A stretch of DNA of 34,976 nucleotides from a virus (lineage: Duplodnaviria; Heunggongvirae; Uroviricota; Caudoviricetes). The stretch lies in IMG/VR virus record IMGVR_UViG_2671180676_000009; one strand, 5' to 3'. Both the position numbers and the translations under genes were made by a program. Of this stretch, positions 12,763 to 31,093 are shown one piece after another (the stretch's first letter is position 1; each line of letters opens with the position of its first letter). The notes under the pieces are model-generated. The model made no database searches. It was not told the DNA's origin and saw nothing but the letters and a program-made list of their open reading frames with translations.

Positions 12763-12782
<20 letters not shown>

Positions 12783-14083
12783 TCTCCCGCATATTGCCAG
12801 CATGGCCTTTAATGAGCCGCTGATGCTTGAACCCGCCTATGCGCGGGTTTTCTTTTGTGCGCTTGCAGGCCAGCTTGGGATCAGCCGCCTGACAGATGCG
12901 GTGTCCGGTGACAGCCTGACTGCCCCGGAGGCACCCGCGACGCTGGCGTTATCCGGTGATGATGACGGACCCACGACAGGCCCGCAGTTATCAGGTCATG
13001 AACGGCATCGCCGTGCTGCCGGTTTCCGGCACGCTGGTCAGCCGGACGCGGGCGCTGCAGCCGTATTCGGGGATGACCGGTTACAACGGCATTATCGCCC
13101 GTCTGCAACAGGCTGCCAGCGACCCGATGGTGGACGGCATTCTGCTCGATATGGATACGCCCGGCGGGATGGTGGCGGGGGCATTTGACTGCGCTGACAT
13201 CATCGCCCGTGTGCGTGACATAAAACCGGTATGGGCGCTTGCCAACGACATGAACTGCAGTGCAGGTCAGTTGCTTGCCAGTGCCGCTTCCCGGCGCCTG
13301 GTCACGCAGACCGCCCGGACAGGCTCCATCGGCGTCATGATGGCTCACAGCAATTACGGCGCTGCGCTGGAGAAACAGGGCGTGGAAATCACGCTGATTT
13401 ACAGCGGCAGCCATAAGGTGGATGGCAACCCCTACAGCCATCTTCCGGATGGCGTCCGGGAAACACTGCAGTCCCGGATGGATGCAACCCGCCAGATGTT
13501 TGCGCAGAAAGTGTCGGCATATACCGGCCTGTCCGTGCAGGCTGTGCTGGATACCGAGGCTGCAGTGTACAGCGGTCAGGAGGCCATTGATGCCGGACTG
13601 GCTGATGAACTTGTTAACAGTACCGATGCGATCACCGTCATGCGTGATGCACTGGATACACGTAAATCCCGTCTCTCAGGAGGGCGAATGACCAAAGAGG
13701 CTCAATCAACAACTGTTTCAGCCACTGCTTCGCAGGCTGACGTTACTGGCGTGGTGCAAGCGACGGAGGGCGAGAACGCCAGCGCGGCGCAGCCGGACGT
13801 GAACGCGCAGATCACCGCAGCGGTTGCGGCAGAAAACAGCCGCATTATGGGTATCCTCAATTGTGAGGAGGCCCACGGACGTGAAGAACAGGCACGCGTG
13901 TTGGCAGAAAACCCCGGTATGACCGTGGAAACGGCCCGCCGCATTCTGGCAGCTGCACCACAGAGTGCACAGGCGCGCAGTGACACTGCGCTGGATCGTC
14001 TGATGCAGGGTGCACCGGCACCGCTGGCTGCAGGTAACCCGGCATCTGATGCCGTTAACGATTTGCTGAACACACCAGTGTAA
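12763..14083 (+). pseudogene. C: Head protease/scaffold gene C disrupted by a +1 frameshift (extra C in CCC run at 12970-12972)
   Basis: GTG start 12763 after AGGAGGAG; frame 1 reads [22 protein letters not shown]...LSGDDDGP then diverges and stops at 13188; frame 2 continues RQARSYQVMNGIAVLPVSGT... to 14083. Confidence 0.75.
13688..14083 (+). CDS. nu3: Scaffolding protein Nu3 (in-frame C-terminal portion of C)
   Basis: Internal ATG at 13688 (MTKEAQSTTVSATASQ...) in the downstream C frame, as in lambda. Confidence 0.6.
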   Translation: MTKEAQSTTVSATASQADVTGVVQATEGENASAAQPDVNAQITAAVAAENSRIMGILNCEEAHGREEQARVLAENPGMTVETARRILAAAPQSAQARSDTALDRLMQGAPAPLAAGNPASDAVNDLLNTPV

Positions 14084-14092
14084 GGGATGTTT

Positions 14093-14425
14093 ATGACGAG
14101 CAAAGAAACCTTTACCCATTACCAGCCGCTGGGCAACAGTGACCCGGCACATACGGCAACCGCGCCCGGCGGATTGAGTGCGAAAGCGCCTGCAATGACC
14201 CCGCTGATGCTGGATACCTCCACCCGTAAGCTGGTTGCGTGGGATGGCACCACCGACGGTGCTGCCGTTGGCATTCTGGCGGTTGATGCTGACCAGACCA
14301 GCACCACGCTGACGTTCTACAAGTCCGGCACGTTCCGTTATGAGGATGTGCTCTGGCCGGAGGCTGCCAGCGACGAGACGAAAAAACGGACCGCGTTTGC
14401 CGGAACGGCAATCAGCATCGTTTAA
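14093..14425 (+). CDS. D: Head decoration protein D (110 aa)
   Basis: [40 protein letters not shown]...; AGGGA 6 nt upstream. Confidence 0.95.
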
Positions 14426-14442
14426 CTTTACCCTTCATCACT

Positions 14443-14467
14443 AAAGGCCGCCTGTGCGGCTTTTTTT
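14443..14467 (+). terminator. Terminator-like hairpin with T-run between D and E
   Basis: GGCCGC-CTGT-GCGGC followed by TTTTTTT; A-run upstream. Confidence 0.5.
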
Positions 14468-28015: not shown

Positions 28016-28042
28016 TTAGCCAGGTAACACAGTGTTATGACA

Positions 28043-28068
28043 GCCCGCCGGTTCAGGCGGGCTTTTTT
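28043..28068 (+). terminator. Rho-independent terminator after lom
   Basis: GCCCGCC-GGTTCA-GGCGGGC followed by TTTTTT. Confidence 0.7.
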
Positions 28069-28079
28069 GTGGGGGGAAT

Positions 28080-31000
28080 ATGGCAGTACGGATTTCAGGT
28101 GTACTGAAAGATGGCGCAGGTAAGCCGATACAAAACTGCACCATTCAGCTAAAGGCCAGGCGCAACAGCACCACGGTGGTGGTGAACACAGTGGCCTCAG
28201 AAAACCCGGATGAAGCCGGGCGTTACACAATGGACGTCGAGTATGGTCAGTACAGCGTCAGTCTGTTGGTGGAAGGATTCCCGCCGTCACATGCCGGGAC
28301 CATCACCGTGTATGAAGATTCCCGACCCGGTACGCTGAATGATTTTCTCGGTGCCATGACGGAGGATGATGCCCGTCCGGAGGCTCTGCGCCGTTTTGAA
28401 CTGATGGTGGAAGAGGTGGCGCGTAACGCGTCCGCGGTGGCACAGAACACGGCAGCCGCGAAGAAGTCAGCCAGTGATGCCGGCACATCTGCCAGTGAGG
28501 CGGCAACCCATGCGACTGATGCTGCAGGCTCAGCGCGTGCAGCCAGCACGTCAGCCGGACAGGCCGCGACGTCGGCTCAGGAGGCGTCTTCCAGCGCAGG
28601 AACGGCATCAACAAAGGCCACTGAAGCATCAAAAAGTGCTGCCGCTGCAGAGTCCTCAAAAAGCGCGGCGGCCACCAGTGCCGGTGCCGCGAAAACGTCA
28701 GAAACGAATGCTGCAGCGTCACAAAAATCAGCAGCCACTTCTGCATCCACTGCGACGACGAAAGCGTCAGAAGCCGCCACTTCAGCCCGGGATGCGGCGG
28801 CCTCCAAAGAGGCGGCAAAATCATCAGAAACGAACGCCTCCACAAGCGCCAGCAGTGCAGCCTCCTCGGCAACGGCGGCAGGAAATTCCGTGAAGGCGGC
28901 AAAAACGTCCGAGACGAATGCTAAGTCTTCTGAAACGGCAGCGGAACAGAGCGCCTCAGCTGCGGCAGACTCTGAGACAACAGCTGCATCATCGGCCCGT
29001 GAGGCGTCCATTAAGGCAGAGGAGGCAGCAGTCAGTGCCACCGCCGCCGGAAAATCGGCAGAAAGCGCCGCATCATCCGCTTCAACAGCCACAACGAAGG
29101 CTGGCGAAGCCACTGAACAGGCCAGCGCAGCAGCGAGGTCTGCTTCCGCAGCGAAGACATCCGAAACGAACGCGAAAGCGTCGGAAACCAGCGCAGAATC
29201 CTCAAAAACGGCTGCCGCATCGTCCGCCAGTTCGGCGGCGTCATCGGCATCATCGGCGTCTGCTTCAAAAGATGAGGCGACCAGACAGGCGTCAGCAGCG
29301 AGGGGCAGCGCCACGACGGCATCCACGAAGGCGACAGAGGCTGCTGGCAGTGCGGCAGCGGCAGCACAGAGCAAAACGGGCAGAGGATATTGCATCCGCC
29401 GTGGCGCTTGAGGATGCGAGCACGACGAAAAAGGGGATAGTACAGCTCAGTAGTGCGACTAACAGCACTTCCGAGTCACTGGCGGCAACACCAAAAGCCG
29501 TTAAGGCCGCGTATGACCTGGCTAACGGGAAATACACCGCACAGGATGCAACGACAGCACAGAAAGGGATAATCCAGCTAAGCAGCGCGACCAACAGCAC
29601 GTCTGAAACGCTTGCCGCGACACCAAAGGCAGTAAAAGCAGAAACGTCTGCAGAAAGATCAGAACGGTGCGGATATCCCTGGCAAAGATACCTTTACGAA
29701 AAATATTGGTGCCTGCCGTGCCTTCGGTGGGTCAGTAAGCACAACAACAGGAAACTGGACGACTGCACAGTTTATCGAGTGGCTGGATTCTCAGGGAGCA
29801 TTTAACCATCCATACTGGATGTGCAAGGGTTCCTGGTCTTATGGCAATAATAAAATCATTACTGATACTGACTGCGGTAATATTCATCTCGCCGGAGCTG
29901 TCATTGAAGTAATGGGGATAAAGTCAGCGATGACGATCCGCATTACCACACCGACCACCTCCACTGGTGGTGGAACAACTAACGCCCAGTTTACCTATAT
30001 TAATCACGGAACAGATTATTCACCTGGCTGGCGAAGGGACTATAACTCCAGAAATAAGCCAACGGCATCAGAGATCGGGGCGTTACCGTCAGGTGGAACA
30101 GCAGTATCATCAGTTAATCTGGCTTCAAAAGGTCGGGTAACCGCGCTGACAGACAATACGCAGGGGGCAGCAGGTCTTGAGTTATACGAGGTGTATAACA
30201 ACGGATATCCAACAGCGTATGGAAATATCATTCACCTGAAAGGGATGACAGCCGTTGGCGAAGGTGAGTTACTCATCGGCTGGAGTGGTACAAGCGGTGC
30301 TCATGCTCCGGCATTTATTCGTTCACGACGGGATACGACCGACGCAAACTGGTCGCCGTGGGCGCAGCTTTACACCTCGGCTCATCCTCCTGCAGAGTTT
30401 TATCCAGTCGGTGCACCAATCCCGTGGCCATCAGATACCGTTCCGTCTGGCTATGCCCTGATGCAGGGGCAGACTTTTGACAAATCTGCATACCCGAAAC
30501 TTGCAGTTGCTTATCCGTCAGGCGTGATCCCTGATATGCGTGGCTGGATGATTAAGGGCAAGCCCGCCAGTGGTCGGGCCGTATTATCTCAGGAACAGGA
30601 CGGCATTAAATCGCACACCCACAGCGCCAGCGCATCCAGTACGGATTTGGGGACGAAAACCACATCGTCGTTTGATTACGGAACCAAATCCACGAATAAC
30701 ACCGGGGCGCATACCCATAGTATTAGCGGGACCGCAAATAGTGCCGGTGCGCACCAACACAAGAGTTCCGGTGCATTTGGTGGCACGAACACGAGCATTT
30801 TCCCTAATGGTTATACCGCGATTTCAAATCTAAGCGCGGGGATTATGAGCACAACAAGCGGTAGTGGCCAGACTCGTAATGCAGGGAAGACATCATCAGA
30901 TGGTGCTCATACCCACTCGCTGTCCGGCACTGCTGCAAGCGCAGGCGCACATGCACATACTGTCGGTATTGGTGCTCATACGCACTCCGTTGCGATTGGT

Positions 31001-31093
31001 TCACATGGACACACCATCACCGTTAACGCTGCTGGTAACGCGGAAAACACCGTCAAAAACATCGCATTTAACTATATTGTGAGGCTTGCATAA
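28080..31093 (+). pseudogene. stf: Side tail fibre gene stf split across three reading frames (junctions near 29373-29376 and 29654-29656)
   Basis: Frame 0 (28080-29411) has the Stf N-terminus and A/S/T-rich repeat; frame 1 has AKRAEDIASAVALEDASTTKKGIVQLSSATNSTSE...ATPKAVKA; frame 2 continues to the His-rich Stf C-terminus ...[14 protein letters not shown]. Confidence 0.75.
28430..29370 (+). repeat. Low-complexity Ala/Ser/Thr-rich repetitive segment of Stf with recurring KTSETNA-type units
   Basis: About 310 codons dominated by A, S, T, K, E with repeated AAKTSETNA / AKSSETNA motifs; yields long spurious ORFs in other frames and on the opposite strand. Confidence 0.7.

Follow-up and report, generated by a model that had tools for sequence, protein, structure and literature searches.

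We analysed a window of 34,976 nucleotides, the whole stretch of DNA in IMG/VR record IMGVR_UViG_2671180676_000009, and observed that it carries a lambda-type morphogenesis operon with the genes in the order Nu1/nohA, A, W, B, C/Nu3, D, E, FI, FII, Z, U, V, G/T, H, M, L, K, I, J, lom, stf and tfa (Table 1). The operon was recognized by this canonical gene order together with matching protein families in annotated relatives, in tblastn and in Pfam searches of the called genes of identical contigs. It is collinear with the phage record PhiR42_1 at ~96.7% identity. On its right side, a truncated ydfJ adjoins pinQ–ydfK, as in prophages of the Qin type, and the 427-aa ydfJ ORF matches the truncated copy in E. 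coli W with 100% identity. The Qin markers rem, ydfU, ydfT, the csp cluster, essD/ydfR/rrrQ/rzpQ, gnsB, ydfO, ynfO, nohA, tfaQ and pinQ are all present with 100% protein identity to E. coli W. The left end of the prophage lies outside the window; int and xis are present in the E. coli W prophage and in PhiR42_1, and the segment from dicB through rem is carried by the contig behind L020 and L026 (one SNP per overlap with the window; CC, not CCC, in gene C).

Table 1. Features of the window discussed in the text
Feature	Position	Strand	Evidence or remark
Lambda-type morphogenesis operon, Qin-type prophage	8536..31668	+	tblastn of each gene against the annotated E. coli W prophage
Gene C (S49 head maturation protease), frameshifted pseudogene	12763..14083	+	comparison with intact relatives; Pfam; anti-SD energy
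Downstream C reading frame, 374 aa, from ATG 12959	12959..14083	+	whole recognisable protease domain (Pfam); annotated as a gene by gene callers
C lesion, CC to CCC (GGACCACG to GGACCCACG)	12970..12972	+	three intact references with CC
Nu3 scaffold ORF, 201 aa, nested in the C frame 3' of the lesion	13478..14083	+	intact
stf pseudogene, 3014 bp versus 3075 bp intact (1024 aa), three frames	28080..31093	+	comparison with intact stf; Pfam
44-bp deletion junction, between 29369 and 29370	29363..29376	+	intact stf of E. coli W and PhiR42_1; retained AGCAAAA copy 29370-29376
17-bp deletion junction, between 29639 and 29640; lost AGCCAATGACAATGCTG	29632..29644	+	E. coli W and PhiR42_1; 2-bp microhomology AG at 29640-29641
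tfa (tail fibre assembly protein)	31093..31668	+	intact; 100% identity over 191 aa to E. coli W TfaQ
ydfJ, 5'-truncated host gene	33693..34976	+	right-hand attachment site marker of Qin-type prophages

An earlier note on this DNA had read the break in C as a one-base insertion, and comparison with the intact genes of the E. coli W prophage, RL465 plasmid III and PhiR42_1, all of which have CC, confirmed this reading. The native GTG start is preceded by a strong Shine-Dalgarno sequence (anti-SD duplex, −12.0 kcal/mol). The frame shifts after codon 69 and reaches a stop at 13186–13188, giving a product of 141 aa of which 72 are out of frame, while the Pfam S49 domain of the intact protein (Peptidase_S49, 1.4e-44 on an intact relative; ~residues 107–297) lies 3' of the break. 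The affected CC is no hot spot of the homopolymer kind: intact C contains 183 runs of two bases, and its longer runs (34 of three, 9 of four and 3 of five bases) are all untouched. We also considered programmed frameshifting at this site and rejected it, as the sequence is an ordinary GGA CCC ACG and the intact relatives with CC read straight through. CCC was absent from the best place in all 3,056 complete-genome records matching a 61-mer across the lesion (best identity 98.4%, equal to one gap), and a scan of species-representative genomes with a CCC 35-mer gave no match, the lineage not being a GTDB representative.

Downstream of the lesion, the 374-aa frame has an SD energy of −3.0 kcal/mol against a background median of −3.1, that is, no ribosome binding site. 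Its exact product was found on 18 contigs (NCBI, Logan and ENA), named 'head-tail preconnector protein GP5' (OAB99311.1). The nested ORF corresponds to Nu3, the C-terminal 201 codons of lambda C; the layout of lambda C, a gene of 439 codons whose GTG start overlaps the 3' end of B and which holds an in-frame nested Nu3 of 201 codons, matches that of the window.

The lesions in stf are of a different kind. The earlier note had put the breaks in both genes at about the right places but had also taken those in stf for one-base insertions in A runs, making three events of one kind. Alignment to the intact stf genes of E. coli W and PhiR42_1 shows instead that 44 bp and 17 bp are missing from the window, and only the C lesion is an insertion of the homopolymer type. 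The deletions were mistaken for +1 insertions because 44 and 17 both equal 2 modulo 3 and shift the frame in the same way; the A runs were implicated because the retained repeat holds AAAA (29373–29376) and AAA (29642–29644) follows the second junction. The resulting pieces are 28080–29411, a homologous stretch at 29371–29640, and 29639–31093; the first of these contains the Pfam domain phage_tail_N and the last contains Collar. The 44-bp deletion, which removes stf residues ~431–445 and shifts the frame, is bounded in the intact gene by two copies of AGCAAAA, a 7-bp direct repeat of which one copy is retained, as in slipped-strand or microhomology-mediated events; the 17-bp deletion causes the second frame shift. 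Judging from the sequence, such a mechanism appears weaker for the latter, where only 2 bp (AG) are shared.

We next asked which state of stf is found elsewhere. In 633 complete genomes, at least 80% of the stf query was covered by a single place, and a phage record also matches across the site. The best 40 complete-genome matches all span 612 bp for the 551-bp query and keep both segments; a record with either deletion would have ranked above them. In two further searches, the matches listed had spans exceeding the query by 44 and 17 bases, in two pieces. The converse polarity, 44 and 17 bp as insertions in the relatives, was rejected, since every copy aligned or listed has both segments and an open 1024-aa frame. 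An in-frame 45-bp deletion allele with one added A at the first junction was not supported by the spans of these 40 matches, and a pattern allowing either form of this junction had no match in 185,579 species-representative genomes.

By tblastn against E. coli W, each of the 41 further genes in the comparison has its full length, among them Nu1, A, W, B, D, E, FI, FII, Z, U, V, G, T, H, M, L, K, I, J, lom and tfa; the claim that every other structural gene is full length was therefore borne out, and only C and stf are broken. tfa is intact, yet no intact fibre is left for its product to assemble. In the G/T tail chaperone pair, a −1 slippery heptamer, GGGAAAG (read G GGA AAG), lies at 18452–18458, close to the end of G at 18476, with the T frame open from 18458; GGGAAAG occurs at chance level across the whole window and is informative only by its position.

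All three lesions recur in other assemblies. We read CCC in seven fetched contigs besides the window's own (L007–L011 and L027–L029, a set that includes the window's own); four of the seven are drafts at NCBI, two were re-assembled by Logan from SRA runs and one is an ENA metagenome, and they comprise at least four haplotypes. These contigs do not represent one dataset, because they differ from the window by 0–27 substitutions, including a recombination tract at 23638–24030. Both stf deletions were read in ten contigs besides the window's own, nine from NCBI assemblies and one from a metagenome; the junctions are identical in L005, L006, L026 and L031–L037, with a nearby SNP at the 17-bp site in L032, and the contigs are distinguished by SNPs at 24561, 24570, 24679, 29658 and 32468. 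Across 3360–34976, the window has no private indel relative to the independent contigs. The lookups used exact ORF products (the ATG-started 374-aa and 424-aa products and an antisense 272-aa ORF). Exact-product lookups of the 443-aa stf N-fragment, the 375-aa C ORF (GTG 12956) and the 141-aa C N-fragment returned none, for the two GTG starts perhaps owing to V versus M as the first residue or to other gene calls. The Logan runs may include reads from which some of the NCBI drafts were built, so that fully independent sequencing experiments are fewer than the contigs, with at least four haplotypes per lesion set. Independent reproduction, which the earlier note had named as the test of real pseudogenes, was thus obtained at the level of separate assemblies and on several haplotypes.

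One of these assemblies also gives the order of events. GCA_017722515.1 (L026) equals window 8885–31446 except for one SNP and the extra C; it has both stf deletions and an intact C, and therefore the C frameshift is younger than the stf deletions. The two stf deletions, which came first, would have abolished the fibre; we propose that the 44-bp one arose through replication slippage or microhomology-mediated deletion, and the 17-bp one has its 2-bp microhomology. With the later +1 C at codon 70, a product begun at the native start would end at 141 residues and not reach the S49 domain; what is left is a downstream C frame that has no ribosome binding site, and an intact Nu3 scaffold ORF. It is a routine, stepwise decay that began in a dispensable gene and only later reached an essential one. 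Both the mutational mechanism of the stf deletions and the functional consequences of the lesions are what we infer from these comparisons.

In lambda, C is essential while stf and tfa are dispensable for plaque formation (PMC10695390 Table 1), and knock-down of C lowers plating by >10^6-fold (PMC10695390); laboratory lambda itself has a stf frameshift, and fibreless lambda is viable (PMC12617516). Of the lesions in the window, therefore, only the one in C should put an end to the production of virions. By analogy, the stf deletions would not block it, head maturation and with it the release of infectious particles should fail in the C-frameshifted sublineage, and fibreless particles may still be made by the sister strain, whose C is intact. 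The view that the nature of the lesions decides inducibility holds only in part, given these roles of C and stf in lambda; the early region, on which induction, excision and replication rely, lies outside the window.

Whether the lesions reflect decay or homopolymer miscalls had been left undecided. If they were sequencing or assembly artefacts, either miscalls or collapsed stf repeats, the prophage would really be intact; the C lesion is indeed a one-base length change in a single-base run, and assemblers might err in the repetitive Ala/Ser-rich region of stf. However, C is the only lesion with such a change, in a run of just 2 bases, whereas longer runs of the gene (three of 5 bases, nine of 4) escaped. 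The other two lesions are deletions of 44 and 17 bp, too large for miscalls; the 7 bp repeated at the 44-bp site are too short for assembly collapse, and the 44-bp segment is retained in draft assemblies of other lineages (L013–L018). Moreover, the lesions recur across submitters, SRA re-assemblies, a metagenome and distinguishable haplotypes, and a near-identical assembly with CC and both deletions is the pattern of a real segregating mutation. We consider an artefact scarcely credible, and of the two choices decay stands.

A tolerated C frameshift is also very improbable, though slightly less so. Active protease could come from the 374-aa frame (ATG 12959 or 12962), which keeps the full Pfam S49/ClpP-like region and might be weakly initiated internally, or C could be supplied in trans by another lambdoid prophage in the same genome; with Nu3 and all other essential late genes intact, particles without side fibres might then form. 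Against this, the internal ATGs lack a Shine-Dalgarno sequence, their energy being that of the background, unlike the native start, ribosomes from which would pass them in another frame until 13188; the first 69 residues of C differ at just 2 positions from the E. coli W protein, and the loss of plating upon C knock-down in lambda is severe. A further reading, unlikely but less so than these two, accepts the lesions and holds that loss of stf was selected rather than neutral, side fibres being costly or disadvantageous and fibreless variants of an active phage being favoured, as in laboratory lambda. The stf deletions did come before the C lesion, in a late operon that was otherwise intact, and stf was broken independently in at least three lineages, a count not normalised by gene length (44 + 17 bp here; loss of one G at stf nt 339 in L013/L015 and at nt 1761 in L017/L018). 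A high adsorption rate from side fibres is described as potentially detrimental in structured habitats (PMC2762979). However, stf is among the longest late genes (3 kb) and dispensable, so that neutral decay likewise predicts early and frequent breaks, and ARS-C101 has a frameshift in gene I instead. It is doubtful that natural Qin/lambda-type phages lose their side tail fibres repeatedly and under selection, a step taken here before any essential gene broke; if it were, strains like GCA_017722515.1 would be the natural counterpart of lambda PaPa, making fibreless virions, and the C frameshift would be a later grounding of the prophage.

We conclude that the lesions in C and stf are real and represent ordinary prophage decay; their nature and polarity were read against intact alleles, and they are reproducible. 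Taken jointly, that these are real inherited mutations and that the window represents the late half of a Qin-type lambdoid prophage, full-length and integrated at ydfJ, in an E. coli lineage for which there are only draft genomes, has in our estimate a probability of about 0.93; the probable source is contig LONW01000034.1 of GCA_001576315.1. The lesions being real, annotation should mark C and stf as pseudogenes, and the prophage should not be counted as intact or as inducible to infectious particles. More generally, a +1 insertion and the loss of 3n+2 bases look alike to frame arithmetic alone, and the intact allele should be compared before homopolymers are blamed. Exact lookups of truncated or antisense ORF products in re-assembled public reads offer a quick test of reproducibility where an assembly error is suspected.

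Qin integrates at the 5' end of ydfJ (PMC6379469), a site common to Qin of E. coli K-12 and to its full-length relatives in E. coli W (NC_017664.1, about 1746516–1795565) and PhiR42_1 (PV340562.1). The window shares with them the marker order rem, ydfU, ydfT/Q, cspB/F/I, essD-ydfR-rrrQ-rzpQ, gnsB, ydfO, ynfO, nohA, then tfaQ, pinQ and ydfK. Qin of K-12 is not known to retain the head and tail genes, whereas the window copy keeps them all. The E. coli W prophage is 99.7% identical over window 1–12000, with most proteins identical. The J C-terminus of the window is of the 1165-aa type, like that of PhiR42_1, while J of E. coli W is of the 1137-aa type. A literature search on the PhiR phage series found a single preprint using sibling phages in spotting assays and no paper on PhiR42_1 itself. 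The E. coli W and PhiR42_1 copies are intact, and the window copy differs from them by the C frameshift and the two stf deletions.

The pair of protease and scaffold has the same organisation as lambda gpC/gpNu3 (S49; Medina et al. 2010, as cited in PMC10695390). Unlike in lambda, the protease frame of the window is broken at codon 70, with Nu3 untouched. The stf change of lambda PaPa is a single base, whereas the window has deletions of 44 and 17 bp, found in natural isolates rather than laboratory stocks. According to the papers citing Hendrix and Duda 1992 (PMC12617516, PMC10695390), stf of lambda PaPa is frame-shifted too, with at least two ORF fragments followed by an intact tfa. By analogy, the phenotype expected of the stf lesions in both would be a viable virion without side fibres. 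In the window, the PaPa-like state of a disabled stf with every essential late gene intact is lost, as C is also broken; the sister assembly GCA_017722515.1 has it within window 8885–31446.

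The earlier note had described three lesions, one in the head protease gene C and two in the side tail fibre gene stf, as one-base insertions in homopolymers, which could reflect either prophage decay or a sequencing artefact. For C this description held. Alignment with three intact references (RL465 plasmid III, the E. coli W prophage and the phage record PhiR42_1) gave one added C, changing CC to CCC, as the single indel. CC is a very short run for a homopolymer error; the intact gene has 183 two-base, 34 three-base, 9 four-base and 3 five-base runs, and all the three-, four- and five-base runs were unchanged in the window. 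The S49 domain of the intact protein (residues ∼107–297) lies past the break, and the whole of it is encodable by the downstream frame from ATG 12959 or 12962. We found no Shine-Dalgarno site before either of these ATGs, the energy (−3.0 kcal/mol) being at the background level (median −3.1), compared with −12.0 for the native start.

By aligning the window with PhiR42_1 and with E. coli W, whose intact stf is 3075 bp long, we observed that both stf breaks are deletions and not insertions in A runs. The block lost at the first junction opens with AGCAAAA and is directly followed by the same heptamer, so that one repeat copy and the spacer are missing. As 44 and 17 both equal 2 modulo 3, each deletion mimics a +1 insertion, and this property together with the A runs at the junctions explains the earlier one-base reading. 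Protein-level mapping agreed with the DNA alignment: Stf residues 1–433, 446–535 and 541–1024 fall in three separate frames. Junction 1 could also be written as an in-frame 45-bp allele plus one inserted A, which is less parsimonious and was unsupported by searches; a pattern covering the 44-bp or the 45-bp+A form had 0 matches in 185,579 species-representative genomes. Within the Ala/Ser-rich portion of stf, many drafts annotate an antisense ORF as a gene instead of the broken stf; this call almost certainly stems from the GC-rich repetitive coding region and is an annotation artefact.

Coordinates of the lesions and neighbouring features in the window
Feature	Position	Strand	Details
C start	GTG 12763	+	preceded by AGGAGGAG
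CCC in C	12970–12972	+	first base of codon 70; intact GGACCACG, window GGACCCACG
Stop of shifted C frame	13186–13188	+	141 residues, final 72 out of frame
Nu3 scaffold ORF	13478–14083		nested in C; 201 aa; intact
GGGAAAG heptamer	18452–18458		lambda G-T programmed −1 frameshift site, kept near G end
G/T overlap	18458–18476		normal feature, no lesion
Mosaic J C-terminus	26344–26671		same 1165-aa J type as PhiR42_1
Antisense ORF in stf	28577–29395	−	272 aa
stf deletion 1	junction 29369/29370		44 bp; 7-bp microhomology AGCAAAA; AAAA at 29373–29376
stf deletion 2	junction 29639/29640		17 bp; just 2 bp microhomology; AAA at 29642–29644
pinQ	31669–32356		interval that follows tfa, with the serine invertase gene ∼100 bp in, on the opposite strand

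The check named in the earlier note, independent reproduction of the lesions, was passed, as all three recur in other contigs. The downstream C frame, read from ATG 12959, gives a 374-aa product that was present without change on 18 contigs (NCBI, Logan and ENA); the last stf fragment (424 aa) was on five and the antisense ORF over junction 1 on eleven. These are counts of assembled contigs, and certain drafts may derive from SRA runs that are also counted, so the safer count is that of distinct haplotypes, which number four or more for each lesion set. Five of the 18 contigs were checked at the DNA level, and the 40-mer with CCC was found in 5/5. Of the Logan re-assemblies, SRR29542927 (over 18.4 kb) and SRR3977091 (over 14.4 kb) matched the window at 100% identity, GCA_012381215.2 likewise has CCC, and a metagenome scaffold with CCC is six SNPs away. 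Both stf junctions were seen in every locus fetched (in one with a SNP nearby) and co-occur in all the sampled contigs, and one ENA metagenome holds a CCC scaffold as well as a stf-deletion scaffold. Across 3360–34976, the window had no private indels relative to these contigs. Substitutions between the window and GCA_001637795.1 and GCA_002513265.1 are clustered at 23638–24030 (I end to J start); this cluster, with a T3/T4 difference at 23797, sets four CCC contigs (L007, L009, L028 and L029) apart from the window. The pattern resembles a short recombination tract, because the 1-bp indel state at 23797 is the same as in E. coli W.

Homopolymer miscalls or assembly collapse are therefore excluded as the source of the lesions: apart from the recurrence, deletions of 44 and 17 bp are beyond what a homopolymer miscall could give, a repeat of 7 bp falls short of what collapse would need, and the segment at the 44-bp site is retained in drafts from other lineages. 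The supposed pattern of three like events also dissolved, two of the three being deletions.

The intact states are common in complete genomes, and therefore the lesion states of the window are derived. In complete E. coli genomes, a 61-mer around the C site matched 3,056 records at 4,327 places; CCC was present at the best place of 0/3,056 records, and the top identity was 98.4%, equivalent to one gap. A 551-bp stf query spanned 612 bp in all 40 complete-genome matches listed; none of these had either deletion, and a record sharing one would have outranked them. Among the matches listed for 70-mers over each stf junction, only two-piece matches were seen, spanning 114 and 87 bases.

The order of events was indicated by a sister strain, GCA_017722515.1 (DADRLZ010000025.1), which over window 8885–31446 differs by one SNP (24679) and by having no extra C. 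It encodes an intact 439-aa C and carries both stf deletions; therefore, the stf deletions are older. From this comparison, the C frameshift would have arisen, or been reverted, within the lineage. The sister strain thus represents a naturally occurring fibreless variant whose essential late genes are all intact within the equivalent of 8885–31446.

The claim that the other structural genes are full length was borne out: in a comparison of 41 further genes with the E. coli W prophage, 41/41 were full length, and the remaining indels relative to that prophage are harmless. At 6182, between rzpQ and cspI, T8 of E. coli W is T7; the latter is real, being present also in an independent Logan contig, and probably neutral. 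FI has an in-frame 3-bp difference at 15775, and a 1-bp difference lies between I and J at 23797. The J of the window and PhiR42_1 has extra segments of 63 and 21 bp compared with the 1137-aa J of E. coli W. In ARS-C101, a relative that is intact in other respects, the annotation marks tail assembly gene I as frameshifted (L003 11574–12147). The late genes lost differ between strains.

Judged by the ORF listing and comparison with annotated genomes, the window belongs to a Qin-type lambdoid prophage. Its gene order is rem, ydfU, ydfT (Q), cold-shock genes, lysis genes, nohA/Nu1, A, W, B, C, D, E, FI, FII, Z, U, V, G/T, H, M, L, K, I, J, lom, stf, tfa, pinQ, ydfK, ynfT and a 5′-truncated host ydfJ, and Qin integrates at the 5′ end of ydfJ (PMC6379469). 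The closest complete genomes, E. coli W and ARS-C101, are 99.7–99.8% identical over window 1–12000 and ∼98% over the structural genes; contig LONW01000034.1 (GCA_001576315.1) was 100% identical across the two stretches fetched and is probably the source of the window. Collinearity with PhiR42_1 (PV340562.1, host listed as ECOR13) extends over the full element, int to pinQ, and identity is ∼96.7% across the 23-kb late region. As PhiR42_1 is a phage record and its sibling phages are employed in spotting assays of a 2025 preprint, this element, in its intact form, appears to exist as a living phage. The PhiR42_1 genome carries relBE, hokD, rem, flxA, csp genes and transposase genes, and this suggests that the ‘cryptic’ Qin has living relatives with the same cargo. 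In the window, pinQ lies ∼100 bp past tfa with no alternative fibre or tfa segment in between, and so there is no Mu/P1/e14-type invertible host-range segment here.

Only one of the three lesions, that in C, bears on virion production; this, along with the exclusion of an artefact and of the homopolymer pattern, is the useful outcome. C is essential in lambda, where its knock-down gives an EOP of <2e-7 (PMC10695390), and by analogy the CCC strains most likely cannot mature heads. The stf and tfa genes are non-essential in lambda, laboratory lambda has a stf frameshift, and Ur-lambda with fibres adsorbs faster at equal titre (PMC10695390 Table 1; PMC12617516). The CC sister strain has a complete set of essential late genes within the stretch fetched. 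Inducibility of either strain is also tied to the early region, which the window does not cover. In contig L020, which is one SNP from window 1–10597, this region extends from dicB past dicA/dicC up to rem, and a full-length 437-aa transposase gene (L020 6098–7411) lies upstream of Q, between a methyltransferase gene and flxA. PhiR42_1 shares this layout and has transposase genes at the position. In E. coli W the gene there, annotated as an ISNCY family transposase, is truncated and has frameshifted ORFs on either side.

In other lineages, the stf of the ydfJ prophage was broken independently, by −1 G at nt 339 (L013/L015) and at nt 1761 (L017/L018), each of the four contigs having a near-identical 424-aa C-terminal fragment (423/424 residues). 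Such recurrent breakage could reflect selection against side fibres; however, under neutral decay a gene that is long and dispensable is equally expected to be hit in this way. We concluded that stepwise pseudogenisation, a known process, is under way in an element of a known kind, namely a lambda-like prophage of the Qin type. Its closest parallels are K-12 Qin, which is far more eroded, and lambda PaPa, in which the same gene, stf, is broken by a different mutation.
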